Source: Flavobacteriales bacterium (lineage in GTDB: Bacteria > Bacteroidota > Bacteroidia > CAIKAF01). Taken from it: a stretch of 64,000 nt of DNA. The stretch is from assembly GCA_025055575.1 (NCBI GenBank), contig JANWWP010000066.1, positions 4,332 to 68,331 of the forward strand, given 5' to 3'. The notes below the pieces were generated by a model. That model saw only the letters and a list, made by a program, of their open reading frames with translations. It had not been told where the DNA came from and made no database searches. Shown in pieces: positions 10,350 through 38,070 of the stretch (position 1 is the stretch's first letter; every line of letters begins with the position of its first letter). A program made the translations under genes and the position numbers.

Positions 10350-11604
10350 ACTGTTTTTTTAGTTCTTTGATGTAATTTCTCAATTCGGCAACGGATTGGA
10401 ACGGCACCGCATTCGTGGAGTCGGGCAAATGGTACTGACGAAATATGGTAAAGAAAGCGTTGTTGGCCTGGCGCAGTTGATGACGCAGATTTTCGCAGTA
10501 AACCGGGGGAACGGTGGCCTGCAAATGGTCCGAACAACGTTCTGCAAACATGTGGAAATACCATTTTTTCAAGGAATCTTTTTCGGAAGGATGGGCCGCT
10601 AAAAACGCCGGATGCTGATAAAGACTGTCTAACCGGGCCGCACATTGGTTCAGGTAACGAACGTATCTTTTTTCAGTTTTTAAAATCTCCAAGTAGTTTT
10701 GATATCTTACGCTCCCTGGGCCGTATTTGGTTTTCAGATACAAAAGGGCTCCAGCATCACCCACGCGGGTGGCCAAACCTTCACTCAACTCCGTGCTGTC
10801 TGGAATGTACAGAGTGGCATGAAACATTTCGTGGATCAGCACATTGGCCAGATTCTCCTCGCCGGTCTGTAACATTCCCGTTGTCACAGGATCCGGAAAA
10901 TAACCCAGGGTGCTCCAGGCATCCACTATACGCAAACGAACGTCGTAGCCCCTGGCCAGAAGCTCTTCCCATTCCCGCCGCGCCATGATGGGATCCAAAA
11001 AACCCTTGTAACTGACGGAACCAATCACCGGGAATTTCCATAGATACGGCCTCAGGCTGTATTTTTCACATGCCGTGAGCACATACAGTAGGCCTTCCGT
11101 GTGCGCGTAGTAGCGGGTGTAATTGCGGTTTTTTGTGAGTCCCAAAGAGTCGGTGGCAAATTGACGAATGTCCTGCACCCATTTCAGTTTCTGACGCAAA
11201 GTATCCGGCGTGGCCGGATCGCTGAGCATTTTTTCGATACGGCGGGATTGGAGAAGAATGCGCATTTGTCCTTGAAGCAGGTGCCATCCGTACGTGATGT
11301 CCCGTCCAAAATGGAGGCCGGATGAAAAAATTAAAAGCCAGAAAAGATCCAGCGCCAATAGCTTTGTACCACTTTTTCCGCGGAACCATTTTTTTGAAAC
11401 AGTTTTGAAGTCCCGGCTACGCTCCTTGAAGCCAATATTTAAAAACACTCTGAGTTTTCTCACGGTGTTATGGGTAAGCCTGCCCGGAAAGCCACAGGAT
11501 ACAAATTTGGTACAAAAACTTCTCCATGAAAAAACTTTGGAAGGCGCTTCATGGTCTGTGATGGTGCGGCGTTGCTCGGACGGACAGGTGCTTTTGGCCC
11601 ACAA
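10333..11604 (-). CDS. Putative zinc-dependent peptidase (HExxH; predicted-aminopeptidase / DUF2265-like). Start uncertain.
   Basis: HEMFHATLY motif. 17-nt overlap with nadD suggests an operon. The first ~100 codons overlap the opposite-strand PBP4-like ORF, so the true start may lie downstream of 11604. Confidence 0.4.
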   Translation of the reverse strand: MWAKSTCPSEQRRTITDHEAPSKVFSWRSFCTKFVSCGFPGRLTHNTVRKLRVFLNIGFKERSRDFKTVSKKWFRGKSGTKLLALDLFWLLIFSSGLHFGRDITYGWHLLQGQMRILLQSRRIEKMLSDPATPDTLRQKLKWVQDIRQFATDSLGLTKNRNYTRYYAHTEGLLYVLTACEKYSLRPYLWKFPVIGSVSYKGFLDPIMARREWEELLARGYDVRLRIVDAWSTLGYFPDPVTTGMLQTGEENLANVLIHEMFHATLYIPDSTELSEGLATRVGDAGALLYLKTKYGPGSVRYQNYLEILKTEKRYVRYLNQCAARLDSLYQHPAFLAAHPSEKDSLKKWYFHMFAERCSDHLQATVPPVYCENLRHQLRQANNAFFTIFRQYHLPDSTNAVPFQSVAELRNYIKELKKQYGKKS

Positions 11605-12862
11605 TGAAAAACTGCGGCTCCTGCCGGCTTCGGTTCAAAAAATTCTGATTTCATTCGCCGCATTAGAGCTTCTGGGTCCTTCCCATACGTTTTTTTCAGA
11701 TTTTTACCTACAAGAACATTTTTCCGGAAACGGCGTTTGGGAAGGCGCTCTGGTGGTGGACGTCCGGCAAAATCCAGCTTTTGGAACACCAGGGCTGACG
11801 TCTCCTTCCGTCGATTCGCTCACAGCCCTTCTCACAGCAGAATTCAAAAACCGCGGCGCCCAGCGCGTGGCGCTTCAAGTGGTGCCGCTCCTGCGTAGGC
11901 ATACCATGAGCCTGCTGCCAGAAGCCTGGTATGTGGAAGATCTGGCTTTCCGCTATGGCACCCCGCCTCAGCCATTTGTTTATAAAGAAAATCAGGCCGA
12001 ACTAAAAATCACCTGGAATGGAGATCAGCCATTACCTGTTTTTAATGGACGGGAGCGCACCCCAGAATGGCTAAAGACAGACATTCTAGTTGATAGATCG
12101 GCCCGCCGGGGTGGTCAGTGGGAAGGCTCTCTGCAGTGGCAGAATGGCCGGCTTTATTGGCGGCTTGCCCTGCGCATCAAGCCGGGGGATACGGCTGTTT
12201 TTCAAATCCCGAATCCCCGGCCAGAATGCGCATTTTTTGAGGATTTGGCCTCTGGCATAGAACAAAGATTGGGCATTGGCCAGTTCGAAGGGGAGCTGCA
12301 TTATGAGACGGATCCTTTTGCGTTACAGGCGCCCTGGCTTAGGATGGAAAGCCTTTCCTTGGACCGCCTGGATTCTGTGATCAACCACCAAAGCCATAAT
12401 TTCTATTCAGAAATGCTTTTATGGAATTTGTTTGATACTGAAACTGATTACGATGGAAAACTGGAGGCTTTGAAAAAATTCTGGGAAGAGCGCGTCGGCC
12501 CTGGTCTCCGCCTCCGTGACGCCAGCGGGCTCAGCCGGAGCAATTGGATGACCGCTGACTGGATGACACGATGTTTGATGTACATCTATTCCAGCCCGCT
12601 TTTCCCGGCTTTTTATCTTACCTTGCCTCAATGGGGCCTTTCCGGCACTTTAAAAAATCTTGGAAATCCTAAGGATGCCGCACGCGGTTGCGCCCGTGCC
12701 AAAAGCGGCTCCATGCAAGGCGTGCAGGGCTATGCGGGATTCCTGAACACAGCACGCCACGGCACGCTTTGTTTTGCTTTCTTTTTCAACCATTTCTCCG
12801 GCCCTGCCTCGGATATCCAGAAATTATGCACAAGGCTTTTGAACGAATTTTGTAAACCCTGA
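11426..12862 (+). CDS. D-Ala-D-Ala carboxypeptidase/endopeptidase of the PBP4 (S13) family. Proposed TTG start at 11426; the track ORF starts at 11294.
   Basis: SxxK motif (PASVQK), KSG motif (KSGSMQG), about 480 aa. A TTG start at 11426 gives a signal peptide (LKPIFKNTLSFLTVLWVSLPG) and places the active Ser about 68 aa from the N-terminus, as in DacB. It also removes most of the overlap with the opposite gene. Confidence 0.65.
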   Translation: MKPIFKNTLSFLTVLWVSLPGKPQDTNLVQKLLHEKTLEGASWSVMVRRCSDGQVLLAHNEKLRLLPASVQKILISFAALELLGPSHTFFSDFYLQEHFSGNGVWEGALVVDVRQNPAFGTPGLTSPSVDSLTALLTAEFKNRGAQRVALQVVPLLRRHTMSLLPEAWYVEDLAFRYGTPPQPFVYKENQAELKITWNGDQPLPVFNGRERTPEWLKTDILVDRSARRGGQWEGSLQWQNGRLYWRLALRIKPGDTAVFQIPNPRPECAFFEDLASGIEQRLGIGQFEGELHYETDPFALQAPWLRMESLSLDRLDSVINHQSHNFYSEMLLWNLFDTETDYDGKLEALKKFWEERVGPGLRLRDASGLSRSNWMTADWMTRCLMYIYSSPLFPAFYLTLPQWGLSGTLKNLGNPKDAARGCARAKSGSMQGVQGYAGFLNTARHGTLCFAFFFNHFSGPASDIQKLCTRLLNEFCKP

Positions 12863-12866
12863 CTTC

Positions 12867-13451
12867 ATGGACCAAAAATATTGGGACCAACGCTGGATGT
12901 GTGGAGACACTGGCTGGGATATCGGCTATCCCGCCCCGGCGATCCTCGATTATGCTGCCGGACTGCCGGATAAAACGATCCGCATTTTAATTCCTGGCTG
13001 CGGCAATGCCTACGAAGCTCAAGCCTTGCTGGATATGGGATTTAAGGATGTGCATCTCCTGGATATCTCCCCCACCCTGACGGACCGCCTGAAAGAACGT
13101 TTTCAGCCATGGTCTGGTCATATTCACATTCATTGCGAAGATTTTTTTGAGCACCAGGGCTCCTACCACCTTATCCTGGAACAAACATTCTTGTGCGCCC
13201 TGAATCCCTCCCAGCGCGAGGCTTATGCCCAAAAATGCCAGCAACTTCTCTATGCCGGCGGACGCTTGGCCGGGCTCCTGTTCGACACAATCTTTGAACA
13301 GGAGGGTCCGCCCTTCGGTGGAACAGCGATGGAATACCGTGCATTATTTGGAAAATATTTCCGCATTCTGAAGCTGGAAAAATGCCTTCTGAGTATTCCA
13401 CAGCGCCAGGGCCGGGAGGTATTTTTTGAAGTCGAAAAAATAGGCCCCTGA
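12867..13451 (+). CDS. TPMT-family (thiopurine S-methyltransferase-like) SAM-dependent methyltransferase
   Basis: N-terminal WDQRWMCGDTGWD motif and glycine-rich SAM site ILIPGCGNAYEA. Confidence 0.65.
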   Translation: MDQKYWDQRWMCGDTGWDIGYPAPAILDYAAGLPDKTIRILIPGCGNAYEAQALLDMGFKDVHLLDISPTLTDRLKERFQPWSGHIHIHCEDFFEHQGSYHLILEQTFLCALNPSQREAYAQKCQQLLYAGGRLAGLLFDTIFEQEGPPFGGTAMEYRALFGKYFRILKLEKCLLSIPQRQGREVFFEVEKIGP

Positions 13452-13591: not shown

Positions 13592-15487
13592 TTGAAAAAT
13601 CTTCCAGGGATATTCAATGGCCTCGGAATTGGTTGGCATGGTCTAACAGCCACTTGTATAATTCTTTTCACTTTTCCGGCCCTTGATTTTCAAACTTTTT
13701 CGGGTCTGGACCCCGCTTATTTTTATGCGTTAAATTATTTCTTTAATCAACGCCTCGTAGCTGGGCAGGATTTTATTTTTTCTTATGGCCCTTTAGGTTT
13801 CCTGAAAGACCCGCAGGCAGCCGCTGGCTTAGACCTGGTGGGGGTTGTAGGTATCCTGATTTTACGATGGGTTCTAGCAGGGTATTTATTGCAGTTGTCC
13901 TGCCTGCATGCACGTCTTCCCCTGCCTCTGGGAATATTTCTGGTTTTGTTGACTCTGGCTCAGCTTCAAAGTTTGGACTATGTGCTTATTCTGTTGGCGG
14001 CTTCAGCTCGTATGGAATTCGGCCGATCCGGGCGCTGGATTCATGCTTCTGTGGCGTGGGCCACAGTGGCTCTTGGAGCTTTGGTGAAAATCAACATTGG
14101 CTTCACAGCCCTGACCCTGACCGGTGCACTGGTCTTTCTGGAAACGATTCAAAACGGGCAATGGAAACGGTTTTTAACTGAACTGACCTTGCTGCCCAGC
14201 TTTTACTCTATATTTTGGTTTTTGGTCTATGGCCACTGGAAAGGCGCCCTAGACTATGTGCGCAATAGCTTTCTCTTGTCTCCCGATAATCTTCATACCA
14301 CACACCTGCCCACCGCACTGGACTTGGACGCCTTGTGGGCCGCTTTAGGTCTGTTTTTTTTGGCAGGGCTTTGGAAAGCCCGCTTTCAGAGGGATTGGAT
14401 GGGGTGGAGTATGGTGCCCGCATTCTTTTTAGTTTTTAAATACAGCGTCGCCCGTTGTGATTTCAGCCATGTGATCCATGGATTCCACTTTCTGGTAGTG
14501 GCTGGGGCGTTGTGGATTTTTTCAGGCCGGGGAGGTTCGGCCACGATAGCGTTTTGGGGTTTGGCGCTCATGTTGTGGCGGTCGGCCTTGCATTCTCTGC
14601 CCTACGTGCCACAGCCCGTCGCTTTTCCGGAAATCAGCCTGCGCGGATTTCGACAATCGGTGTGGAATTATTCTCAAACACATCAAAAAGCCCTCGACAT
14701 GCTCCCCGATAATCTGCGCGCTGATACGCTCCCCGGGCCATGGTTGCAAAGACTGAAGGATGCCAAAGTGGATTTTTTCCCCTGGGTCACCTCGTCGGTG
14801 GCATTGTACGGGCTCCGTTATCATCCCCGACCTTTTATGCAGCATGGACTGGCTTCCGGACCTTTTTTCGATCGTTTGAATGCCGGATGGCTGCTTTCAT
14901 CCAAAGGGCCCGATTATGTCATTTGGCACGGCGGATGGGACAGCTCAGGCATAGCCACTATGGACGGGCGATATGTGGGACTGGAACACACCCGCACCCT
15001 GGAAGCATTGATGCAAGGCTATGAAGTGGCGGAATCGGACAGCCGAATGGGCCTTCTCCTGAAAAGAAAAACGTTTAAAACCACCCCCGCAATTCCAGAA
15101 CCGAATGAATTGAAATGCTTTGAACGGTTAATGTGTAGATGGAATCAATGGGTTTTCATTCCTTCTGAAAATAAAGACAGTAGGCTTTTAGGCCGTCTTT
15201 CAGGAAATGTAAGTTTAAGTGGATTTTTGAGAAAATGGCTGTTTAAAGACGCCGTGTTGGATGTGGAAATTCAGGACCATTTGGGTAGGATTTTCAGGCA
15301 CAGGCTAGCGTTGCCGGGCGCTATGGATAGAATGTACATACATCCTTACTTTCCCGAATTCCCCTTTTTGCACTTAGGAGTTTCGGTCAAAGCTTTACGC
15401 TTAATATTAGTGGAAGGCGTGCCTGTGCTGAAGGAACCCTTCGTTCTGGAACTGTTTCAACAAGAAACGCTCCCTGTGGCCCCTTAA
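13592..15487 (+). CDS. Large polytopic membrane protein (631 aa): about 10 N-terminal TM helices plus a ~300-aa soluble C-terminal domain. GT-C-like architecture, no recognised family.
   Basis: Hydrophobic helices through about aa 330, then a hydrophilic C-terminus. Preceded by a 140-bp AT-rich promoter region. Immediately upstream of gmd/fcl. Confidence 0.4.
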   Translation: MKNLPGIFNGLGIGWHGLTATCIILFTFPALDFQTFSGLDPAYFYALNYFFNQRLVAGQDFIFSYGPLGFLKDPQAAAGLDLVGVVGILILRWVLAGYLLQLSCLHARLPLPLGIFLVLLTLAQLQSLDYVLILLAASARMEFGRSGRWIHASVAWATVALGALVKINIGFTALTLTGALVFLETIQNGQWKRFLTELTLLPSFYSIFWFLVYGHWKGALDYVRNSFLLSPDNLHTTHLPTALDLDALWAALGLFFLAGLWKARFQRDWMGWSMVPAFFLVFKYSVARCDFSHVIHGFHFLVVAGALWIFSGRGGSATIAFWGLALMLWRSALHSLPYVPQPVAFPEISLRGFRQSVWNYSQTHQKALDMLPDNLRADTLPGPWLQRLKDAKVDFFPWVTSSVALYGLRYHPRPFMQHGLASGPFFDRLNAGWLLSSKGPDYVIWHGGWDSSGIATMDGRYVGLEHTRTLEALMQGYEVAESDSRMGLLLKRKTFKTTPAIPEPNELKCFERLMCRWNQWVFIPSENKDSRLLGRLSGNVSLSGFLRKWLFKDAVLDVEIQDHLGRIFRHRLALPGAMDRMYIHPYFPEFPFLHLGVSVKALRLILVEGVPVLKEPFVLELFQQETLPVAP

Positions 15488-15511: not shown

Positions 15512-16627
15512 ATGACCAAACGCGCGCTCATCACAGGCATCACCGGACAAGACGGGGCCTATTTAGCAGAATTTCTCCTACAGAAGGGCTATGAAGTACA
15601 CGGCATCAAACGCCGCAGCTCCTTATTTAATACCGATCGGATTGATCATCTGTACCAGGACCCACATGATGCCAACACCCGCTTTCATTTGCATTATGGA
15701 GATCTGACGGACTCTCTCAATCTGACGCGGATTATTCAGGAAGTCCAGCCCGATGAAATATACAATCTGGGCGCCATGAGCCATGTGAAAGTGAGTTTTG
15801 AGGAGCCGGAATACGTAGCCAGCGCCGATGGCCTGGGGGCCTTACGCATTCTGGAAGCTGTACGGCTTCTGGGTTTGGCCGAGCGAACGCGGGTGTATCA
15901 GGCTTCCACCTCAGAATTGTATGGCTTGGTGCAAGCTATTCCCCAAAACGAAAAAACCCCGTTTTATCCCAGGTCTCCTTACGGTGTTGCCAAATTGTAT
16001 GCTTTCTGGATCACTGTCAACTACAGGGAAGCCTACAACATTTTTGCTGTGAATGGGATTTTGTTTAATCACGAAAGTCCTGTACGGGGCGAAACTTTCG
16101 TCACCCGAAAAATCACACGCGCTGCAGCCCGCATTGCGCTGGGTCTTCAGGATTGTTTGTATTTGGGCAACCTGGATGCCAGAAGGGACTGGGGGCATGC
16201 ACGGGACTACGTGGAAGCCATGTATCTGATGCTCCAGCAGCCCGAACCGGAGGATTACGTCATTGCAACTGGCGTCACGGTGCCCGTGCGTCAGTTTGTG
16301 CACATGGCCTTCTCGGAACTGGGTATCGCCCTTGCCTTCGAAGGCCAAGGCAAAGAAGAAGTGGGCCGTGTGGCCCATTGCAGCCACCCGGAATTTCAGC
16401 TTCCGGAAGGCAAAGTGGTGGTTCGGGTGGACCCAAAATATTTCCGTCCCACCGAAGTGGATCTGCTTGTGGGCGATGCCTCCAAAGCCCGAGAAAAGCT
16501 GGGTTGGACACCTAAATATAATTTGGAAGCCTTGGTGCAGGAAATGGTGGCTTCTGACCTGGCTCTATTTCGTAAAGAGAAATATTTAAAAGAAGGCGGC
16601 CATCGGATTTTGCATTACGGAGAGTAA
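15512..16627 (+). CDS. gmd: GDP-mannose 4,6-dehydratase
   Basis: [37 protein letters not shown]..., highly characteristic of Gmd. About 370 aa. Confidence 0.95.
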
Positions 16628-16638
16628 AAAAGGTCTTC

Positions 16639-17613
16639 ATGGAACGTTCCAGCAAAATTTATGTCGCAGGCCACCGGGGTATGGTAGGGTCAGCCATTGT
16701 CCGACGGCTTCAGGCAGAGGGCTACAACAATCTCACGCTTCGTACCTCCACAGAACTCGATTTGCGCAACCAGAAAGCTACAGAAGATTTTTTTGATACG
16801 GAAAGACCCGAATATGTTTTTCTGGCGGCGGCCCGCGTGGGCGGCATTTGGGCCAACAGCACCCGACCGGCGGATTTTTTATATGATAATCTGCTCATTC
16901 AGTGCAACGTCATTCACGCAGCATGGAAATTTGGAGTGAAGAAACTTTTGTTTCTTGGTTCCTCTTGCATTTATCCCCGCCTTTCACCGCAACCCATTCG
17001 AGAAGAATATTTGCTTACGGGGCCTTTTGAGCCGACTAATGAGCCCTACGCGCTGGCTAAAGTGGCCGGTTTGAAAATGTGTACTGCCTATCGGCGTCAA
17101 TATGGTTGCAATTTTATTACCATCATGCCCACCAATTTGTATGGGCCCGGGGATAATTATGATTTGTATTCATCCCATGTTTTGCCGGCTCTTCTGCGTA
17201 AATTTCACGAAGCCAAAATCCAAAATTCAAACAAGGTCATAGTATGGGGCACTGGAAGCGTATTACGAGAATTTATGCATGTGGATGACCTGGCGGATGC
17301 ATGTCTTTTCCTTATGCTGCATTATGACGAAGAATTGTGGATGAATTGCGGAACGGGGGAAGAACTTTCCATTCGCCAGTTGGCTGAAATTATTCAGGAA
17401 ATCACAGGCTGCAACGCCGCCATAGAGTTTGACCCGCAAAAGCCCGACGGAATGCCGAGAAAATTACTGGACTCCAGCCGCCTAAGAGGTCTGGGATGGC
17501 AACCACGCATCGGATTAAAGGAAGGAATACGGGATGTGTACCAAAATTCTTTCCTAAAAGAGTACAATTCTGCGCTCATGCGGGAAAAAGCCATTCCCAT
17601 GGCTTCAAATTAA
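16639..17613 (+). CDS. fcl: GDP-L-fucose synthase (GDP-4-keto-6-deoxy-D-mannose 3,5-epimerase/4-reductase)
   Basis: KIYVAGHRGMVGSAIVRRL Rossmann motif, catalytic Cys in LFLGSSCIYP, His in SSHVLPALLRKFHEA. Confidence 0.9.
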   Translation: MERSSKIYVAGHRGMVGSAIVRRLQAEGYNNLTLRTSTELDLRNQKATEDFFDTERPEYVFLAAARVGGIWANSTRPADFLYDNLLIQCNVIHAAWKFGVKKLLFLGSSCIYPRLSPQPIREEYLLTGPFEPTNEPYALAKVAGLKMCTAYRRQYGCNFITIMPTNLYGPGDNYDLYSSHVLPALLRKFHEAKIQNSNKVIVWGTGSVLREFMHVDDLADACLFLMLHYDEELWMNCGTGEELSIRQLAEIIQEITGCNAAIEFDPQKPDGMPRKLLDSSRLRGLGWQPRIGLKEGIRDVYQNSFLKEYNSALMREKAIPMASN

Positions 17614-17630: not shown

Positions 17631-18635
17631 ATGGCAATGGACTTGGACAGCCGGATTTTTGTGGCCGGCCATAGGGGGCTGGCAGGGTCGGCCGTGCTTC
17701 GAAGGCTTCAAAAAGAAGGCTTTAGACACCTTTTCACGGCCCCGTCTTCCATTTTGGACTTACGCCGGCAGAAGGATGTCCAGATTTTTTTCAATGAGAC
17801 TCGGCCCGAATTTGTTTTTATGTGCGCTGCCACAGTGGGAGGCGCCGAGGATAATCTTCAAAGACCCGGGGCGTATTTGTATGACAATCTGATGATGCAA
17901 GCCAACGTCATTAATGCGGCTCAGGCTTCAGGAACCCAAAAACTTCTTTTAATAGGTTCCTCCTATTTGTATCCAGCTCAAGCACAGCAACCCATGGTGG
18001 AAGATGCGCTGTTGACAGGCAGCTTTGAACCCGTAAAAGAATTTTACTCCCTTTCCAAAGTGGTGGGCATTAAACTTTGCGAAGCTTTTAAGCGACAAAT
18101 GGATCTAAACTTTTTTTCTGTGATGCCCCCCAACCTCTATGGACCTGGCGACAAATATGATACCAGGTCCGCACACGTCATTGCTGCCTTGTTAAGACGG
18201 TTTCATGAAGCCAAAGAAAAAGGCACGCAGGAAGTGGTCATTTGGGGCAGCGGCTCGGCTCTTAGGGAGTTCCTTCATGTAGATGATTTGGCTGATGCCT
18301 GCGTGTTTCTCATGAAAAACTTTAATCCGGAAAGTTTTCCCGATAACCTTGGGATGCCTTGGATCAATTGCGGATCCGGAGAGGAGATCAGTATTCGGGA
18401 TTTGGCCCAACTCATTCAAAAAATCGTAGGATATACTGGAAAAATAATTTTCGATCCCACCCGGCCCGAAGGTGCGCCCAGGCGCCTTTTAGACAGTTCC
18501 CGGCTGCGAAGGTTGGGGTGGCAGCCCACCAAGGATTTGCGAAAAGGTCTTGAAGAAGTGTATCAAAATTTTTTCTTAGCCGATTATGCCCGCAGCCTTG
18601 AGCGGGAGGCCCGCAAGTCCTCTGCCGCATCATGA
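17631..18635 (+). CDS. Second Fcl-like SDR paralog (GDP-sugar epimerase/reductase family) with the catalytic Cys replaced by Tyr
   Basis: RIFVAGHRGLAGSAVLRRL, LLLIGSSYLYPA (Cys replaced by Tyr), SAHVIAALLRRFHEA. Start taken at ATG 17631, just after the fcl stop. The track ORF start at 17496 overlaps fcl. Confidence 0.75.
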   Translation: MAMDLDSRIFVAGHRGLAGSAVLRRLQKEGFRHLFTAPSSILDLRRQKDVQIFFNETRPEFVFMCAATVGGAEDNLQRPGAYLYDNLMMQANVINAAQASGTQKLLLIGSSYLYPAQAQQPMVEDALLTGSFEPVKEFYSLSKVVGIKLCEAFKRQMDLNFFSVMPPNLYGPGDKYDTRSAHVIAALLRRFHEAKEKGTQEVVIWGSGSALREFLHVDDLADACVFLMKNFNPESFPDNLGMPWINCGSGEEISIRDLAQLIQKIVGYTGKIIFDPTRPEGAPRRLLDSSRLRRLGWQPTKDLRKGLEEVYQNFFLADYARSLEREARKSSAAS

Positions 18636-19570
18636 AAAATTTCCACCCGCGGGTGAAATGCAGTGCCTTTTCCCTCAACAGGGATGAAGAACTGAAAAAT
18701 CTCTTGTTATCTGTATTTCCTGAAGCGGTCATCGGCCCCACAGACGAGAATATTCCACTCGACGAATTTTTAGATTTTGCCTCGGATGCCGAAGCCCTCA
18801 TTGTAGGGCGGGAAAAGGTGGATGAACGGCTGTTCGAGGCAGCGCCCCATTTAAAGGTGATTTCCAAATATGGGGTCGGTGTGGATAATATTGATTTCAA
18901 TGCCTGCCAGGCTCATGGAGTCCACGTTCTCCATGCAACGGGTGTCAACCGCCAATGTGTGGCCGAACTCACGCTGGGCTTCATTCTGGCCAGCCTGCAC
19001 AACATCGTTTTCTCCGACAGACTCCTGCGCCGGGGCCAATGGGTGAAAGACGGAGGATGGGACCTGGCCGGAAAAACAGTAGGTATTGTAGGCTTTGGTA
19101 ACGTAGGAACGCAGCTTGCCAGGCTGTTGCAGCCCTTTGAGGTGAAAATCTTGGTGCATGATATTTTAGACAAAACAGATGCTTGCAAACAATTTTTACA
19201 TACCCAACAAACAGACCTGAACACGCTTCTTACAAGTTCAGATATAGTTTCCCTGCATGTACCCCTAACATCTCTGACAAGGAAAATGATAGCAGCACCT
19301 CAATTTGCCATCATGAAAACAGGGTCCATTTTAATTAACACCGCACGCGGCGGAATCCTCGATGAAAGCGATCTTTTGAATGCCTTAAATTCGGGGTCAA
19401 TACGAGCAGCCTGTCTGGACGTCTTTGAAGAAGAACCACTTACCCAACACCCTTTATTGCAGCACCCACGGGTTATCACCACGCCACATATCGGAGGAAA
19501 CAGCCGTGAAGCCCGTCGCGCAATGGCACATGCCGCTATTTCGATGTTAGCGGAATATTTAAAAATTTAA
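18632..19570 (+). CDS. D-isomer-specific 2-hydroxyacid dehydrogenase (phosphoglycerate/glycerate dehydrogenase-like), NAD-binding
   Basis: GKTVGIVGFGNVGTQLARLL NAD-binding motif. ATGA overlap with the upstream gene. Confidence 0.8.
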   Translation: MKNFHPRVKCSAFSLNRDEELKNLLLSVFPEAVIGPTDENIPLDEFLDFASDAEALIVGREKVDERLFEAAPHLKVISKYGVGVDNIDFNACQAHGVHVLHATGVNRQCVAELTLGFILASLHNIVFSDRLLRRGQWVKDGGWDLAGKTVGIVGFGNVGTQLARLLQPFEVKILVHDILDKTDACKQFLHTQQTDLNTLLTSSDIVSLHVPLTSLTRKMIAAPQFAIMKTGSILINTARGGILDESDLLNALNSGSIRAACLDVFEEEPLTQHPLLQHPRVITTPHIGGNSREARRAMAHAAISMLAEYLKI

Positions 19571-19654: not shown

Positions 19655-20830
19655 TTGTCACATTTTTGGGTCTTGGAAAATTCTGAAAAAAAGAAAATTT
19701 GGCTTTCCTCACCGCACATGTCTGGCTACGAGGAAGCCTATATTAAGGAAGCGTTTGCATCGAATTGGATCGCACCCTTGGGTCCGCATGTGGATGCTTT
19801 TGAAAAAGCGCTGTGTTCTTATACTGGAGCTCGGCATGCCGCAGCCTTATCCTCCGGTACGGCAGCTTTGCATTTGGCTTTAATGCTGTGCAATGTGCAG
19901 CGGGGGGATGAAGTGATTTGCCAGTCTTTTACCTTTTCAGCTTCCGCCAATCCCATTGTTTATCAGGGGGCAACTCCGGTATTTGTGGACAGTGAGGAAG
20001 ACACTTGGAATATGGACCCCCAACTGTTGGAAGAAGCCCTGAAAGATCGACTGGCACGCGGTAAAAAAATAAAAGCGGTCATCGCAGTGCATTTGTACGG
20101 CATGCCGGCAAAATTGAATGAAATTAAAGCGCTGTGCGAAAGGTTTGAAGTACCTTTAATTGAAGATGCGGCTGAGGCTCTGGGTAGTCAATACCGAGGT
20201 CGTGCATGCGGCACTTTTGGTCGTTTTGGGATTCTCTCCTTCAATGGCAATAAAATAATCACCACCTCTGGGGGCGGTGCCCTATTGGGCGAAGAGGCTC
20301 AAGCCATCGAAAAAGCCCGGTTTTTGGCTACACAGGCACGCGATCCCGCACCCCACTATCAGCATTCACATATCGGATATAACTATCGACTTAGCAATGT
20401 GTTGGCTGGAATAGGAAGAGGTCAAATGCAAGTGTTGGATGAACGCGTCGCTCAAAGACGTAGAAACTTCGATAGATATGTGCGGATTTTCTCTGGTTTT
20501 CCGGGTATTGATTTCCAACCGGAAAGTCCAGATAATTTTTCCAACCGCTGGCTCACTTGTATCCTGATAAATCCTGAGTTGGCAGGTTTTGACAGAGAAA
20601 AATTGAGGTTGGCTCTGGAAAATGAAAACATTGAAAGCCGTCCTTTGTGGAAACCCATGCACTTGCAACCGGTGTTTAAAGATGCGCCTGCCTATGGCGG
20701 CAGCGTCTGTGCCCGTTTATTTCAGGATGGATTGTGTCTTCCTTCCGGCTCCAATCTGAGCCCGCAAGATTGGGAAAGAATTGAAGAGACGCTGTATTCT
20801 GTTCTAGAATCTAATACGGTCTCACGATAA
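19655..20830 (+). CDS. DegT/DnrJ/EryC1/StrS-family PLP-dependent sugar aminotransferase (PglE/WbpE-like, nucleotide-sugar 4-aminotransferase)
   Basis: N-terminus LSSPHMSGYEEAYIKEAFASNWIAPLGPHVDAFEKAL closely resembles PglE-type enzymes. PLP lysine in SFNGNKIITT. Confidence 0.85.
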   Translation: MSHFWVLENSEKKKIWLSSPHMSGYEEAYIKEAFASNWIAPLGPHVDAFEKALCSYTGARHAAALSSGTAALHLALMLCNVQRGDEVICQSFTFSASANPIVYQGATPVFVDSEEDTWNMDPQLLEEALKDRLARGKKIKAVIAVHLYGMPAKLNEIKALCERFEVPLIEDAAEALGSQYRGRACGTFGRFGILSFNGNKIITTSGGGALLGEEAQAIEKARFLATQARDPAPHYQHSHIGYNYRLSNVLAGIGRGQMQVLDERVAQRRRNFDRYVRIFSGFPGIDFQPESPDNFSNRWLTCILINPELAGFDREKLRLALENENIESRPLWKPMHLQPVFKDAPAYGGSVCARLFQDGLCLPSGSNLSPQDWERIEETLYSVLESNTVSR

Positions 20831-22788
20831 TGAGAAGGATAACTTTTCGTCTCAGCGGTCATCTTGGGCGGTATCTATCCAGAAGGTACATGTCCCGCAT
20901 CACTGTTCTGGTGACGGATATTTTCCTTTCTGGCGTGGCATACGCTATAAGTTTTATCATTTTTTGGCAGTATGTAAAAAAGACCCCGCTTCTGGAGCAT
21001 CTTCCGGCGCTTGTATGTGTGAGCATGGTGGTTAAGGGCTTGTGGTTTTTTGTTTTCAAGACCTACAATGGAGTTGTCCGCTTTGCAGGAGAGAAAGATG
21101 CTTTTCGCATTTTGGCGGCCCACTTTTTTGCTTTGGCCAGTGGCCTGGCCATAAATAAATTTTTGTTAGAACCTCTCCTGGGTTACAGAGGGCCTAACTC
21201 TGTTTTGTTTTTTGATTTTCTCACCGGTACTTTCTTTTTGGTAGGCTATAGAGTTTTTATCCGGATCATTCTGGATAAAAGTCAGGCCGGATTTGGTCTA
21301 AAAATTCCCACCCTCATTTACGGGGCCGGTCAATATGGCTACATCACAAAAAGAGCTCTAGAAAAAGATCCTCAAAACCGCTTCAGGATTGTAGCCTTTG
21401 TGGATGACAACCCCGCTCTGAATAAAAAGATTGTGGACGGCGTTCCGGTGTATCACACGGAAACAAACCTAGAACGGCTCGTCCGGGAGAACGATATTCG
21501 GCAAATAATTATTGCTATTCAAAGCCTGAGCGAAAAACGTAAGAAAGACATCATCGAACAATGCCTTGCACTCAATTTAAAAGTGCTGAAGGTGCCTTCC
21601 GTGCGCAGTTGGATTCACTCCGAAATGAGCGCGGCCAAGCTGAAAGATGTCCGGCTAGAAGACCTGCTTGGTCGCGAACCTATCGTCATTCACACCGAAG
21701 CCATTTCCAACCAATTAAAAGATCGTCGAGTGCTTATTACGGGAGCTGCCGGTTCCATCGGGAGCGAAATCGCCCGCCAGGTGGCAGGGTTCCAGCCGGC
21801 CGAACTGGTGCTCCTGGATAATGCAGAAAGCCCCTTGGTGGAAATTCATCTCGAATTGCAGGAAAGCGCCCAGGATCAAAATATCGCCGCTGTAGTGGCC
21901 GATGTTTCTGACAGCGGCCGAATGCAAGAAATCTTTTCCCGCTTTAAGCCTGAAATAGTTTTTCATGCGGCTGCATACAAGCATGTGCCCATCATGGAAC
22001 TCAATCCCTCTGAAGCCGTTCGGGTGAACGTGCTGGGCACAAAACTGCTGGCAGATCTTTCGGTGGAGTATGGAGTGGAAAAATTTGTCATGGTGTCCAC
22101 CGATAAAGCCGTTAACCCCACGAACGTGATGGGGGCCAGCAAGAGAATTGCCGAAATCTACACCCAGTCCTTGGATAAACTGGCTTTAGAAGGTCGGCAT
22201 CGGACCCGATTTGTGACCACCCGTTTTGGTAATGTGTTGGGCTCCAACGGGTCTGTGATTCCCCGTTTCCGTAAGCAAATAGAAAACGGCGGACCGGTCA
22301 CCGTCACGCATCCGGACATTACACGCTACTTCATGACCATTCCCGAAGCCTGTCGTCTGGTGCTGGAGGCCGGAGTGATGGGCCAGGGAGGTGAAATTTT
22401 CCTTTTCGACATGGGCGAAAAAGTGCGAATCCTGGATTTGGCCGAAAAAATGATCAAACTCTCCGGTAAAAAACCTTATGAGGAAATAGATATTGTCTTC
22501 ACGGGTTTGCGTCCCGGGGAAAAGCTCACCGAAGAGCTGCTCTGCGACTCAGAAAAAGCGCTTCCCACCCACCATCAGAAAATCATGAAAGCGCGCGTGG
22601 CCGAATATAATTTTACCTATGTTCAGTCTAAATTACAGGCCCTGATTCGGGCTTACGAAACCCGCGAAGACATGGCCCTCGTGGCTGTCATGAAAGAGAT
22701 GGTCCCTGAATATGTGAGCAACAATTCTGTTTTTTCAATTTTGGATAAGTCGCCCGTGATGAATGATTTGTCCGGAGAAGGCCTCTAA
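20830..22788 (+). CDS. Membrane-anchored NDP-sugar 4,6-dehydratase of the PglF/CapD/WbpM family
   Basis: 4 N-terminal TM helices, Rossmann motif VLITGAAGSIGSEIARQV, and TDKAVNPTNVMGASKRIAE (YxxxK-type SDR). TAATG stop/start overlap with the aminotransferase. Confidence 0.85.
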   Translation: MRRITFRLSGHLGRYLSRRYMSRITVLVTDIFLSGVAYAISFIIFWQYVKKTPLLEHLPALVCVSMVVKGLWFFVFKTYNGVVRFAGEKDAFRILAAHFFALASGLAINKFLLEPLLGYRGPNSVLFFDFLTGTFFLVGYRVFIRIILDKSQAGFGLKIPTLIYGAGQYGYITKRALEKDPQNRFRIVAFVDDNPALNKKIVDGVPVYHTETNLERLVRENDIRQIIIAIQSLSEKRKKDIIEQCLALNLKVLKVPSVRSWIHSEMSAAKLKDVRLEDLLGREPIVIHTEAISNQLKDRRVLITGAAGSIGSEIARQVAGFQPAELVLLDNAESPLVEIHLELQESAQDQNIAAVVADVSDSGRMQEIFSRFKPEIVFHAAAYKHVPIMELNPSEAVRVNVLGTKLLADLSVEYGVEKFVMVSTDKAVNPTNVMGASKRIAEIYTQSLDKLALEGRHRTRFVTTRFGNVLGSNGSVIPRFRKQIENGGPVTVTHPDITRYFMTIPEACRLVLEAGVMGQGGEIFLFDMGEKVRILDLAEKMIKLSGKKPYEEIDIVFTGLRPGEKLTEELLCDSEKALPTHHQKIMKARVAEYNFTYVQSKLQALIRAYETREDMALVAVMKEMVPEYVSNNSVFSILDKSPVMNDLSGEGL

Positions 22789-27562: not shown

Positions 27563-28621
27563 TTATTTTGGGATGAGCAAGGCGGTTATTTTTACCATTG
27601 TTAATAATAAAAACACCGCCACCAACTGATGGGCCACCCCAAGAACCAAGGGCACGGCCAGCACAAGTGTCAAAATGCCCAACAACACCTGCACATGCAC
27701 CCACAGAATTAACTGACGTCCCGAAGCGGACCAAATGCCCCCCGCTCTTACCAACCGAAAACCCATCCAGGTGAGAAGACCATACACTACCCAAGCCCAG
27801 GTGCGGTGAAAAAATTGAAGCCCGGATTCATTTTCCAAAAAATTCACATACCAAGGCTGAGCCGCCCACACCGACTCCGGAATCCAGGCATCCCCCATGC
27901 GCGGCCAGGTATTGTATAGCTGCCCCGCATCTTTCCCGGCCACAAACGCACCGTAGATAATCTGGAGAATGAGGGCCAAAAGGGAAATCCACAGCAGGCT
28001 TTTTTTGACAGGAGGAGTTCCCTGTGCGGTTTGAACCCGCGGAGGATTCAAACGCAGCAACTGCCAGTAAATGGCCACGGCAATGGTCAGGGCCGTGCAT
28101 AGATGGGCCGCCAGCCTAAAGTGGCTCACGCGCGGTTCATCCACCAGGCCGCTTTTCACCATATACCAGCCCAAGAAGCCCTGAACACCTCCCAGAATTC
28201 CAATCAACAAAATACCAGGCAGCATAGGCCGGGGTATCTGACGGCGAATCCAAAAAGCAGCAAGAGGAACAATATAAACAAGCCCTATAAGGCGGGCAAT
28301 GAACCGATGGATCCATTCCCACCAGAAAATGGTTTTGAAATCCTGCAGGGTAAAGCCAGAATTTTTATATAAAAACTCCGGTGAATTTTTGTATTTATCA
28401 AATTCGTTCTGCCAGTCCTGTTCTGTTAAGGGCGGAAGAACTCCGGTCACGGGCCGCCAGTCGGTGATGGAGAGTCCGCTTTCTGTGAGACGGGTGATAG
28501 CGCCTACCACCACCATCAGCACCACCAGCACCAAGCCCGTGCGCAGCCAAAGGCGCACAGGATGCAGTGCGCGGTGAGGTGAATTCTCGGGCGTCAGGGA
28601 TGCGCTGGTCGGAGGTACCAT
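27563..28621 (-). CDS. ctaA: Heme A synthase (COX15/CtaA family)
   Basis: AITRLTESGLSITDW motif and multiple His-containing TM helices. Confidence 0.8.
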   Translation of the reverse strand: MVPPTSASLTPENSPHRALHPVRLWLRTGLVLVVLMVVVGAITRLTESGLSITDWRPVTGVLPPLTEQDWQNEFDKYKNSPEFLYKNSGFTLQDFKTIFWWEWIHRFIARLIGLVYIVPLAAFWIRRQIPRPMLPGILLIGILGGVQGFLGWYMVKSGLVDEPRVSHFRLAAHLCTALTIAVAIYWQLLRLNPPRVQTAQGTPPVKKSLLWISLLALILQIIYGAFVAGKDAGQLYNTWPRMGDAWIPESVWAAQPWYVNFLENESGLQFFHRTWAWVVYGLLTWMGFRLVRAGGIWSASGRQLILWVHVQVLLGILTLVLAVPLVLGVAHQLVAVFLLLTMVKITALLIPK

Positions 28622-28639
28622 TTCGGCCGAATCGGATTT

Positions 28640-36442: not shown

Positions 36443-36850
36443 ATGAGTTTTAATTTAGTTACGTATATTAAGGAAACTGAAACTTTGTTCCAAATTAAGG
36501 CTGAAAGAAACTTGCATGGCACATCGTGGCAATGGGAAGTGCATGTGTCCAGCAGCCATCCCATTCTGGCCGCTCATTTCCCCGGACTGCCTGTAGTGCC
36601 GGGCATCATGCAACTGCATCTGGTGCGCCGGGCTGCAGAACATGTATTAAAAAAATCTCTGGCTTGGGAAGGTCTTCAGAAAGCCAAGTTTTTTAATCCC
36701 TGGACGCCGTCCCAAGCCCCAGTTGCCTTGCTCATGCTTTCCATCCAGGAAGGGCCGGACAAAACCACCGGACGCTGGCGCGTGGATGCCCGGATTGCCC
36801 ACGGGGAAATGGCCATTTTGCAGGTAAAAGGACAACTGCGCGCATGCTAG
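36443..36850 (+). CDS. FabZ/FabA-like hotdog-fold (3R)-hydroxyacyl-ACP dehydratase-family protein
   Basis: HFPGLPVVPGIMQLHL matches the FabZ active-site region HFPGxPVxPGVL. Confidence 0.6.
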   Translation: MSFNLVTYIKETETLFQIKAERNLHGTSWQWEVHVSSSHPILAAHFPGLPVVPGIMQLHLVRRAAEHVLKKSLAWEGLQKAKFFNPWTPSQAPVALLMLSIQEGPDKTTGRWRVDARIAHGEMAILQVKGQLRAC

Positions 36851-38070
36851 TCCCTGAGGAAAAAGCTGAAATCATTCGGCTAAGCCGGCAATTCCGGGTG
36901 TGTTGCGTGGTACCGTTTTTCAACAACCGACAGCATGTCACTCAAGTTCTAAAGCAGCTCCTGGCTCTGGGCTTTCCGGTGATTGCTGTGAGCGATGGCA
37001 GCACCGATGGTTCTGCAGAGGAAGTTCAGCCATTGAATCTTCGCGCCTTTCTGAAATATTCCCCCAACCGCGGAAAAGGCTATGCCTTGCGCCTGGCCTT
37101 CCAGAAATCTCTGGAACTTGGCTACGCATATGCCATCACGGTGGATGCGGACGGGCAGCATGTCCCTTCCGAAGCGCTGGCGCTTCTGAAAGCGCTGGAG
37201 GCCCACCCGGGTGCCCTGGTGGTGGGAGCGCGCCGCATGGAAGGAAAGGAGCAGTCCCAAGCCGCCGGATTTGCCAATCGCTTTTCCAACTTCTGGTTTG
37301 GCGTGCATGCCCTCCAAAGGCTTTCCGATACCCAAAGCGGCTTCAGGCTGTATCCGCTGAGAGCTGTGACAGGCTTGCGCCTGATGGGCCGACGTTATGA
37401 ATTTGAAGTGGAAGTCCTTGTGAAAGCGGCCTGGCGGGGCATTAAAATTGTGGAAACCCCGGTAGATGTCTGCTACCCGCCCCGGTCCGAACGGGTGAGT
37501 TTTTTCAGGCCCGGCTGGGATTTTTTCCGTATTTCCCTCATGAATACCTACCTCACGTTGGGGGCCCTGCTTTACGGACACTGGGTCATTCTGGCCCGGA
37601 GGTTGTCTTGGAAAAGTCTGACCAGCTTCCTGCGCCGTCATGTTTTCAGCCGCGAGGAACCTGTGTGGAAAAAAGCCGCCAGCATTGGCCTGGGGGTGTG
37701 CATGGGCATCGTGCCTGTGTGGGGTTGGCAAATGCTGTCGGCCGGTATTTTAGCCCACATGCTGAAATTAAATAAAGGTTTGGCCGTTATCAGCTCCAAC
37801 ATCTCCATGCCGCCCATGTTACCTTTTATTATTTGGGGAAGTGTGGAAACCGGCGCCCTTTTCTTTCCTCCAGAACGGCGGTTCAAACCTCGTTGGGAAT
37901 ACCTGCAAGCCGATCCCTGGCAAGCCTTAGGAGCGGGAGGTATGCAATATGTCCTGGGCGCTGTGGCACTGGGTATCCTGGCCGGTCTTGCGGCTTTTGT
38001 TATTTCTTTGCCCCTACTTCATTTAGTCCGCCAGAAGAATTGGAAGAAACAAGTCCCGCCCTCCGCCTAA
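36844..38070 (+). CDS. GT2 polyprenyl-phosphate glycosyltransferase (GtrB/ArnC/DPM1-like) fused to a C-terminal DUF2062-like membrane domain
   Basis: VVPFFNN...SDGSTDGS, NRGKGYAL, ITVDADGQH and DTQSGFRLYP motifs. C-terminal TM helices. 7-nt overlap with the hotdog gene. Confidence 0.7.
   Translation: MLVPEEKAEIIRLSRQFRVCCVVPFFNNRQHVTQVLKQLLALGFPVIAVSDGSTDGSAEEVQPLNLRAFLKYSPNRGKGYALRLAFQKSLELGYAYAITVDADGQHVPSEALALLKALEAHPGALVVGARRMEGKEQSQAAGFANRFSNFWFGVHALQRLSDTQSGFRLYPLRAVTGLRLMGRRYEFEVEVLVKAAWRGIKIVETPVDVCYPPRSERVSFFRPGWDFFRISLMNTYLTLGALLYGHWVILARRLSWKSLTSFLRRHVFSREEPVWKKAASIGLGVCMGIVPVWGWQMLSAGILAHMLKLNKGLAVISSNISMPPMLPFIIWGSVETGALFFPPERRFKPRWEYLQADPWQALGAGGMQYVLGAVALGILAGLAAFVISLPLLHLVRQKNWKKQVPPSA

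Follow-up and report, generated by a model that had tools for sequence, protein, structure and literature searches.

In a 64,000-nucleotide stretch of DNA from a Flavobacteriales bacterium (the window), the gene directly following a canonical GDP-L-fucose synthase gene, fcl1, encodes a paralog, FclY, in which the epimerisation cysteine is replaced by tyrosine. Because this exchange is accompanied by a rebuilt sugar pocket, FclY most likely makes a second GDP-6-deoxy sugar. With moderate confidence we propose that it uses NAD(P)H to reduce a GDP-4-keto-6-deoxyhexose, with its 3,5-epimerase activity lost or cut short, and so yields a second GDP-6-deoxyhexose.

GDP-L-fucose synthase (GFS; other names GMER, Fcl or WcaG) is the textbook case of a single active site that performs two epimerisations and a reduction in a set order. 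To our knowledge, natural retuning of this order for other 6-deoxyhexoses is known only through point mutants and the distant heptose reductases of Campylobacter. FclY, a young duplicate beside its parent with a short list of fixed pocket changes, would be a natural experiment on product stereochemistry and possibly a biocatalyst for a rare GDP-sugar. The impact is limited: the clade is a tiny one of uncultured Flavobacteriales, and precedents exist.

The fclY locus and its origin

The gene belongs to a module with a conserved order: a GT-C-fold membrane protein, gmd, fcl, fclY and a 2-hydroxyacid dehydrogenase. In the window the module and the genes that follow it are:

13592..15487, + strand: polytopic membrane protein of 631 aa whose fold is of the GT-C glycosyltransferase type; heads the module
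15512..16627, + strand: gmd, GDP-mannose 4,6-dehydratase, source of GDP-4-keto-6-deoxy-D-mannose (TIGR01472, 592.6 bits, cut-off 415)
16639..17613, + strand: fcl1, canonical GDP-L-fucose synthase with LFLGSSCIYP and SSHVLPAL (NF047922, 482 bits)
17631..18635, + strand: fclY, GFS/Fcl paralog of 334 aa with a Tyr/His dyad replacing Cys/His (translation, phmmer, NF047922, AF2)
18632..19570, + strand: D-isomer-specific 2-hydroxyacid dehydrogenase, its start overlapping the fclY stop (ATGA); no equivalog assignment
19655..22788, + strand: DegT/LegC-like aminotransferase (19655-20830) and PglF/CapD-like membrane 4,6-dehydratase (20830-22788) (TIGR04181, 399 bits; PseB, 180 bits)

The two motifs of fcl1, whose Cys codon (TGC) lies at 16966-16968, bear out its initial annotation as a canonical Fcl. 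It ends 17 nt upstream of fclY. The genes of the module are tightly packed, with no terminator-like site on the + strand in the intergenic gaps, and promoter and terminator scans returned chance levels. Among related loci, gmd is syntenic throughout, and the order gmd-fcl1-fclY recurs in five further loci, with fclY always immediately after a canonical fcl1. The dehydrogenase lies directly downstream at every locus; its presence in the same place where fclY is absent weakens the idea that it is specifically tied to FclY. The aminotransferase and membrane dehydratase pair is found in loci L001-L004 and L008, is missing after the dehydrogenase in L005 and L006, and probably forms a separate amino-sugar branch. 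We considered the DegT protein as a ColD-like 3-dehydratase of the colitose type and rejected this: the PLP lysine motif SFNGNK is present, and profile scores place the protein with LegC/PseC-type aminotransferases. The module contains neither a ColD-like 3-dehydratase nor heptose genes, and Gmd is its sole source of ketosugar. Neither in the window nor in L001-L008 does the module, flanks included, contain a gene of the cupin/RmlC family.

By its profile scores fclY is a tandem duplicate of the fcl that the lineage itself carries, with fcl1 as the probable parent. A profile of the Tyr-bearing clade scores its members at 600-652 bits, Fcl1 of the lineage at 474-485 bits and other Fcl proteins at 466 bits or less; the top matches from outside the clade are the lineage's own Fcl1 proteins. 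Fcl1 and FclY also have a C-terminal tail motif in common. Two related lineages, of the L006 and L008 types, do not carry fclY, which is therefore accessory. A decayed copy in the 976-nt gap of L006 and L007 was looked for and rejected: tblastn gave no similarity, and the gap (31% GC) has no Rfam match.

The motif GSSYLYP is common to all six clusters formed at 90% identity (P0001-P0006), which come from independent JGI, Logan and NCBI assemblies. These clusters are 59-64% identical to the window protein and 59-81% identical among themselves, and the orthologs are 317-334 aa long. The clade is under purifying selection, with a dN/dS of 0.062 between two fclY orthologs and 0.047 for the neighbouring fcl1. 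Conservation in six clusters together with this ratio led us to reject sequencing error or a pseudogene. At the DNA level, the pattern GSSYxYP-17aa-EPxKEFY, verified on the window and L001-L005, had no match in 185,579 GTDB species representatives; it had none in the JGI metagenome collection either, a result that is not readable as absence, P0004 being derived from JGI. In a profile search of 1.84 billion representatives at 50% identity the clade has no separate representative, its members falling under canonical Fcl clusters, and the search thus informed only on other non-Cys variants. For Bacteroidota, literature searches turned up no publication describing an Fcl paralog with a Tyr/His dyad.

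Active-site residues kept and changed in FclY

By sequence FclY is a GFS/Fcl paralog. Its translation (17631-18635) carries LLLIGSSYLYPA and SAHVIAAL, and it matches GFS structures in the PDB with phmmer E-values of 1e-95 to 1e-87. The match to E. coli GMER (1bws; E 4.5e-88) is ungapped across the active-site region and pairs Ser110 of FclY with Ser107, Tyr112 with Cys109, Tyr139 with Tyr136, Lys143 with Lys140, and His182 with His179; MAFFT alignments agree with this register. The placement of the tyrosine at the Cys109-equivalent position, on which the initial annotation rested, thus holds by both methods. The same alignments confirm its statement that the His motif (SAHVIAAL) and the Rossmann fold are kept: the extended-SDR cofactor motif G13-x-x-G16-x-x-G19 is intact, and an AF2 model (pLDDT 93.7) superposes on E. 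coli GFS 1gfs with TM-scores of 0.90/0.95. The score of FclY against the NCBIfam equivalog NF047922 (406 bits) is under the 500-bit cut-off, a weak test taken alone, as canonical Fcl1 is also under it (482 bits). The active-site features are:

17844..17876, + strand: GDP/sugar-binding loop-helix with clade-specific changes (alignment to the canonical set)
17958..18059, + strand: stretch with the retained reduction triad Ser110 (17958-17960), Tyr139 (18045-18047) and Lys143 (18057-18059), and with clade-specific residues (alignments)
17964..17966, + strand: Tyr112 codon TAT, aligned with E. coli Cys109 and human Cys116; Tyr invariant in 6/6 clade members
18153..18155, + strand: Lys175 codon AAA, for canonical Asn172, in the loop leading to His182 (alignment)
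18174..18176, + strand: His182 codon CAC, the counterpart of E. coli His179, retained (phmmer, alignment)

The Cys replaced by Tyr112 is the general base for epimerisation, and it is present in 234/234 canonical relatives. The His179 equivalent serves as the epimerisation acid and in human GFS also touches the GDP alpha-phosphate (PMC12362431). Throughout the clade the triad, the cofactor glycines, the His and the GDP contacts are invariant; among residues retained in FclY are Asn165, Trp202, Arg209 and Arg282 (E. coli numbering), with Lys283 conservatively replaced by Arg.

Around these conserved elements the pocket has been rebuilt. We compared positions that are at least 80% conserved in the canonical set (n=234) with a clade consensus, held by at least 5/6 members, that is seen in no more than 5% of canonical sequences. 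Eleven positions emerged: C109Y and ten others (I69A, A71D, F79Y, L105I, I110L, L129F, T132V, N133K, A139S and N172K). In the loop-helix the changes are Ala72, Asp74 and Tyr82, where 97% of canonical sequences have Ile, 88% Ala and 92% Phe, respectively; Asn75 is kept. The equivalent human segment, residues 74-82, becomes ordered upon GDP binding; there the alpha-phosphate binds to the main-chain NH of Leu76, and Asn79 is part of the sugar pocket (PMC12362431). Next to the triad, the clade has Val135-Lys136-Glu-Phe138 in place of canonical Thr-Asn-Glu-Pro. Lys136 corresponds to E. coli Asn133 and human Asn140, which points into the sugar pocket, and N133 and the 69-72 segment are both sugar/GDP-pocket elements in the human enzyme (PMC12362431). 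At the position of Lys175 canonical sequences have Asn in 81% and Lys in 0.9%. The rebuilt pocket gains two cationic residues (Lys) and one anionic residue (Asp).

Relation to characterised enzymes

GFS, represented by the E. coli enzyme (1bws/1gfs) and human TSTA3, is closest to FclY by sequence and structure; FclY is 44% identical to the E. coli enzyme and 53-59% identical to Fcl1 of the lineage. It is like GFS in its length class, Rossmann motif, Ser/Tyr/Lys triad, His179, GDP contacts and place after gmd, and unlike it in having Tyr for Cys109, ten more near-invariant positions altered, and the status of a second, accessory copy. Changing this Cys to Ser in GFS (E. coli C109S, human C116S) causes premature reduction and yields C3-mono-epimerised GDP-(6-deoxy)-D-altrose; in human C116S this product amounts to about 70%, the exchange for Ser lowers activity ~440-fold, and human C116A is inactive (PMC12362431). 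Unlike these single mutants, FclY has a bulky Tyr in a co-adapted pocket that is upheld by selection.

A tyrosine at the same position is found in MlghC (Cj1428c) of C. jejuni NCTC 11168, a GDP-4-keto-heptose C4 reductase without epimerase activity (PMC7949155; PDB 7anc, 7m13, 7cxt). MlghC is likewise an extended SDR (GSGYMYP in MlghC, GSSYLYP in FclY), and its Tyr points into the active site. It is, however, only 33-35% identical to FclY, has Arg at His179 and Phe at Tyr136, contains a ~30-residue insertion (345-350 aa), acts on heptoses, and has a cupin epimerase, MlghB, as a separate partner. DdahC of C. jejuni 81-176 (PDB 7anh) is a GFS-like pure C4 reductase with a Thr/His dyad that makes the 6-deoxy-D-altro configuration (PMC7949155). 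FclY resembles DdahC in combining a non-Cys residue with a kept His and an intact Ser/Tyr/Lys triad, and differs from it in that DdahC has Thr rather than Tyr, a heptose substrate, a partner cupin C3 epimerase and an insertion. The DdahC single mutant T110Y, which would have had a Tyr/His dyad, was not obtained by its authors (PMC7949155); FclY is a natural instance of the dyad that mutagenesis failed to produce. The insertion in Campylobacter reductases of the MlghC/DdahC type (345-373 aa) lies past the helix following His179 and is absent from the FclY orthologs. These C4 reductases match FclY in two stretches at 222-245 bits, and true GFS enzymes at 296-323 bits.

The simplest reaction proposed for FclY, reduction without epimerisation, would be that of Rmd and Tld/GTS, which make GDP-6-deoxy-D-mannose and -D-talose. 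Both belong to another SDR lineage: the alignment of Rmd 6x3b to FclY gave 38 bits (E 9e-9), against 323 bits for GFS. If FclY reduces the Gmd product without epimerisation, it would represent an independent, GFS-derived route.

Proposed function and alternatives

The comparisons above show the residue equivalences, conservation, purifying selection, synteny, origin by duplication and fold; that FclY is active, on which substrate, with epimerisation lost or cut short and to which product, is inferred. FclY would be a neofunctionalised copy of the lineage GDP-L-fucose synthase that still binds GDP-sugar and NAD(P)H, and its intact Ser110/Tyr139/Lys143 triad would still reduce the 4-keto group. 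Tyr112 has taken the place of the thiolate that serves as base for epimerisation, first at C3 and then at C5, and the sugar pocket has been rebuilt around this Tyr (Lys136, Lys175, Asp74, Ala72, Tyr82, Leu113, Val135 and Phe138). As the most likely consequence, 3,5-epimerisation would be lost or halted early, and reduction of the Gmd product, GDP-4-keto-6-deoxy-D-mannose, would yield a GDP-6-deoxyhexose that is not GDP-L-fucose. Provided that hydride transfer keeps the GFS geometry, candidate products are GDP-D-rhamnose (no epimerisation), GDP-6-deoxy-D-altrose (C3 only) and GDP-6-deoxy-L-gulose (C5 only); were the sugar flipped, the talo or L-gluco series would result instead. Fcl1 and FclY would share one Gmd pool and supply two GDP-6-deoxyhexoses per cell. 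That product or mechanism differs from GDP-L-fucose synthesis, as the initial annotation suggested, is well motivated by the GFS mutants, the MlghC precedent and the ten co-substitutions; the choice of product stays broad, and D-rhamnose, 6-deoxy-D-talose, 6-deoxy-D-altrose or the outcome of Tyr-based full epimerisation may each apply.

Some features count against this reading. His179 is kept, and the two newly gained lysines might turn Tyr112 into a competent base for full or partial epimerisation by lowering its pKa. Unlike the Campylobacter reductases, FclY has no separate cupin epimerase in its module, and Fcl1 would be the one evident source of an epimerised substrate. The kept His and GDP contacts are equally expected of a plain GFS. 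A more specific form of the proposal, which we regard as speculative, makes FclY a natural mono-epimerase/reductase: Tyr112 paired with Lys136 or Lys175 would be a weaker or differently placed base that inverts one centre (C3 or C5) before reduction, and the lineage-specific GT-C transferase that heads the module would then receive the sugar on a polyprenyl-phosphate carrier.

SDR enzymes have the Tyr/Lys pair as their standard acid/base, and FclY might be a full GDP-L-fucose synthase isozyme, with Tyr112, activated by Lys136 or Lys175, as the base for both epimerisations. The two Asn-to-Lys changes fixed alongside the Tyr, the retention of His182, the triad and all GDP contacts, and the public annotation of P0001, a MAG protein identical to the window protein, as 'GDP-L-fucose synthase [Flavobacteriales bacterium]' are consistent with it, and human GFS retains activity as H186K, a sign that some change in dyad chemistry is tolerated (PMC12362431). 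We nevertheless consider it unlikely. A redundant copy is not expected to fix about eleven rare pocket substitutions and then keep them under purifying selection; the Cys is universal in the canonical set, and even its conservative exchange for Ser costs ~440-fold in activity and alters the product (PMC12362431). The only characterised Tyr-bearing enzyme, MlghC, is without epimerase activity (PMC7949155), and the equivalog score falls below its cut-off.

The constant position of fclY directly after fcl1 would fit another arrangement, in which FclY would be an epimer-selective C4 reductase fed by Fcl1. It would take GDP-4-keto-6-deoxy-L-galactose, or its C3 epimer, to the opposite C4 outcome, for example GDP-6-deoxy-L-glucose. 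MlghC, with Tyr at the same position, reduces a 3,5-epimerised 4-keto sugar to the L-gluco configuration (PMC7949155), and when reduction is blocked GFS makes the fully epimerised 4-keto product, according to the account of Menon et al. given in PMC12362431. Yet FclY has none of the Arg, Phe and insertion that distinguish MlghC, and in wild-type GFS the steps are tightly coupled, with a single product released (PMC12362431), so that little free intermediate may be available in the presence of NADPH. We judge this reading improbable on the comparison as it stands.

It is quite improbable that FclY acts on some other GDP-ketosugar, such as a 3,6-dideoxy, heptose, uronate or amino-sugar intermediate, recognised by the new Lys, Lys and Asp. 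The charged residues gained by the pocket, the heptose and 3-deoxy substrates taken by GFS-like reductases of C. jejuni (PMC10680097) and the occurrence of non-Cys GFS-like variants in unrelated contexts speak for it, but the module encodes no producer of such a sugar, Gmd being its only ketosugar source. Least probable of all is a dead or weak pseudoenzyme serving as a structural or regulatory partner, in an Fcl1 heterodimer or as a stabiliser of Gmd: the epimerisation base is lost, human C116A is inactive, GFS is a dimer (PMC12362431) and fclY is dispensable in related lineages, but the catalytic, cofactor and GDP-binding residues are invariant, the substituted pocket residues are likewise invariant rather than drifting across orthologs 59-81% identical, and the dN/dS of fclY is near that of fcl1.

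Dozens of GFS family members in the representative set do not have the catalytic Cys, and the label 'GDP-L-fucose synthase' is over-propagated. Among the non-Cys variants in unrelated contexts, P0161 is a GFS-like protein with a Tyr/Thr dyad whose gene adjoins radical-SAM and transketolase genes.

A tyrosine at the Cys109-equivalent position

The plus strand of the window carries a tightly packed gene row from 13.6 to 22.8 kb:

13592-15487, +, membrane protein of 631 aa
15512-16627, +, gmd (TIGR01472, 593 bits)
16639-17613, +, fcl1, canonical fcl
17631-18635, +, fclY, the gene under study
18632-19570, +, D-2-hydroxyacid dehydrogenase, its ATG overlapping the fclY stop (ATGA)
19655-20830, +, DegT/LegC-like aminotransferase
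20830-22788, +, PglF/CapD-like dehydratase

A mechanical ORF list starts fclY at 17496, within fcl1; the orthologs start at the ATG at 17631, and so does P0001, a public protein of 334 aa with 100% identity. Fcl1 scores 482 bits against the 500-bit cut-off of the NCBIfam GDP-L-fucose synthase (GFS) equivalog, with every catalytic residue present.

The initial annotation reported that FclY has Tyr in place of the catalytic Cys but keeps the His motif, next to a canonical neighbour. The Fcl1 translation contains LFLGSSCIYP and SSHVLPAL, and FclY contains LLLIGSSYLYPA and SAHVIAAL. A phmmer search of all PDB sequences aligns FclY to E. coli GFS (1bws, E 4.5e-88), ungapped around the motif, and equates FclY Ser110, Tyr112, Tyr139, Lys143 and His182 with Ser107, Cys109, Tyr136, Lys140 and His179; two independent MAFFT alignments give the same register. 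The Tyr112 codon is TAT (17964-17966) and the matching Fcl1 codon TGC, so that the difference is a single transition. Since motifs, residue equivalences and codons agree, the observation is right in all its details.

Conservation and origin of fclY

GSSYLYP occurs in six protein clusters (P0001-P0006, the Tyr clade) among the 120 best homologs from a search of 5.8 billion clusters; the remaining homologs all have GS[ST]C[IV]YP. Identity to the window protein is 59-64% for P0002-P0006. A six-member profile scores its own members at 600-652 bits, and below the gap that follows, the search found zero additional Tyr-type members. The dN/dS of fclY is 0.062 between the two closest orthologs, compared with 0.047 for fcl1, 0.011 for gmd and 0.080 for the dehydrogenase, and FclY diverges faster than Fcl1 (ortholog identity 59-81% vs 69-88%). 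fclY is a functional gene under selection. An assembly error or a decaying copy is ruled out by the six-cluster conservation together with this dN/dS.

The order membrane protein, gmd, fcl1 (Cys), fclY (Tyr), 2-hydroxyacid dehydrogenase is repeated in five further loci from independent samples. Because the best non-clade matches to the Tyr-clade profile are Fcl1 proteins of the same lineage (474-485 bits, with other Bacteroidota Fcl at 466 bits or below), because Fcl1 and FclY share a C-terminal tail motif (HF-x-x-[DE]-[YL]-[AN]-[RK]) absent from other Fcl proteins, and because the genes lie in tandem, the sequences point to fclY being a duplicate of the lineage's fcl. It is an accessory gene, since the slot lacks it in three related loci (L006, L007 and L008). 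In L006 and L007, from two NCBI MAGs (GCA_026418395.1 and GCA_025055635.1), fcl1 and the dehydrogenase are separated by 976 nt of 31% GC (locus GC 48%) that contain no ORF and show neither tblastn similarity to FclY nor an Rfam match; this stretch, at 10967-11942, is identical in the two assemblies. L008, an ENA contig, has fcl, 194 nt and then the dehydrogenase. The dehydrogenase, being present without fclY, is therefore not specifically linked to FclY, despite the gene overlap where both occur.

The dehydrogenase falls under all NCBIfam equivalog cut-offs (best PGDH, 247 bits vs 454), and its closest PDB relatives are short archaeal-type PGDH (1wwk) and glyoxylate reductases. Its position is unchanged in loci without fclY. 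Genes for CtaA (heme A synthase) and an M16 peptidase immediately precede the module, in the same orientation, in L001, L003, L005, L006 and L008. The window instead has them about 5 kb downstream, on the minus strand (27566-31459), a local rearrangement; upstream of its module are genes for an S13 D-Ala-D-Ala carboxypeptidase and a TPMT-like methyltransferase (11294-13451).

Remodelling of the sugar pocket

The Tyr clade (n=6) was compared with 234 relatives having the canonical Ser/Cys/Tyr/Lys/His set, scoring columns that are at least 80% conserved in the canonical proteins and in which five or more of the six clade members carry a common residue present in at most 5% of those proteins. Eleven columns qualify (E. 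coli numbering): I69A, A71D, F79Y, L105I, C109Y, I110L, L129F, T132V, N133K, A139S and N172K. Less strictly conserved positions follow the same trend (P135F, T164P, S178A, P182A, P207A, D278E, K283R). The GDP and cofactor residues Asn165, Trp202 (5/6 members), Arg209 and Arg282 and the glycine motif are kept.

In human GFS complexes, the segment equivalent to 67-75 becomes ordered upon GDP binding, the main-chain NH of Leu76 (Ile69, FclY Ala72) contacts the alpha-phosphate, and Asn79 (Asn72, kept in FclY) and Asn140 (Asn133, FclY Lys136) face the sugar pocket (PMC12362431). The changes therefore cluster on the sugar side and spare the machinery for nucleotide binding and hydride transfer. A confident AF2 model of FclY (pLDDT 93.7) has E. 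coli GFS as top structural match (TM 0.90/0.95), followed by Campylobacter reductases. The most divergent ortholog, P0006 (L005, 8219-9172), has Ala for the guanine-stacking Trp (Trp202, human Trp208), which is found in every other FclY ortholog and 96% of canonical GFS.

Precedents and predicted activity

Both epimerisations in GFS use Cys109 (human Cys116) as general base and His179 (human His186) as general acid; C3 is inverted first, then C5, before C4 reduction by Ser/Tyr/Lys (PMC12362431, PMC8787198). Human C116A has no activity. C116S works at a rate about 440-fold lower and yields about 70% C3-mono-epimerised product, since reduction outpaces inversion at C5; E. coli C109S behaves similarly, and H186K keeps activity (PMC12362431, PMC8787198). 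The C116S product is named 'GDP-D-altrose' in the source (PMC12362431), which we read as GDP-6-deoxy-D-altrose because the paper names the 6-deoxy intermediate.

The key substitution has characterised but distant precedents. Two GFS-like C. jejuni proteins, DdahC (Thr/His) and MlghC (Tyr/Arg), reduce C4 but have no epimerase activity and depend on cupin epimerases encoded separately; the Tyr that MlghC has at the Cys109 position faces the active site, Phe replaces its canonical Tyr136, and a Tyr/His single mutant was not obtained (PMC7949155). The checked sequences read GSGYMYP...SRVLPAL (7anc/7m13/7cxt) and ASTTVYP...SHVLPG (7anh). MlghC thus shares the Tyr with FclY but pairs it with Arg, whereas FclY has His. 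Non-Cys variants are common among the 150 nearest 50%-identity representatives (P0121-P0270), with dyads Ala/His (6), Thr/His (3), Ser/His (2), Phe/His, Tyr/Thr, Phe/Thr, Asn/His and others, and a separate set of pocket changes in each. The pattern suggests that GFS-like reductases have radiated widely and are mostly uncharacterised; functional labels derived from GFS would be unreliable among them, and the representatives themselves are unnamed. One of them, P0161 (Tyr/Thr; L009, 6309-7253), lies between radical-SAM and transketolase-like genes. A literature search found no description of a Tyr/His paralog next to fcl in Bacteroidota. FclY forms a new, very small subfamily within a known enzyme family.

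FclY is best explained as a neofunctionalised GFS, predicted to act as a C4 reductase. Binding of a GDP-4-keto-6-deoxyhexose and of NAD(P)H would be retained, as would C4 reduction, with the epimerase programme lost or truncated; from the Gmd product the enzyme would thereby make a second GDP-6-deoxyhexose. At C4, GFS re-establishes the D-manno configuration, and L-galactose and D-mannose differ at C3 and C5 only. From carbohydrate chemistry, unchanged hydride geometry would give D-rhamnose (no epimerisation), 6-deoxy-D-altrose (C3 only) or 6-deoxy-L-gulose (C5 only); flipped sugar binding would be needed for the talo, ido and L-gluco series. The altered product or mechanism proposed in the initial annotation is reasonable and partly supported.

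A full GFS with a Tyr/Lys base is the first alternative: the retained His and two new lysines suit Tyr as a base, but the pocket changes are coordinated and then frozen, which argues against a redundant isozyme. FclY could also be an MlghC-like reductase supplied with epimers by Fcl1. A third alternative is a wholly different substrate; no cupin epimerase, ColD-like dehydratase or heptose genes were found in the module or its flanks, in the window or the related loci. A pseudoenzyme is disfavoured by the same coordinated, frozen changes. Reduction of C4 by a neofunctionalised FclY remains the preferred reading.

The GDP-sugars of the module may, speculatively, pass via a lipid carrier to a glycosylation step at the periplasmic face, since GT-C enzymes take polyprenyl-phosphate-linked donors. 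About 14 kb from the module, at 36844-38070 (+), a GT2 glycosyltransferase domain is fused to a DUF2062 membrane domain, a type of enzyme that could load sugar onto polyprenyl phosphate for a GT-C transferase.
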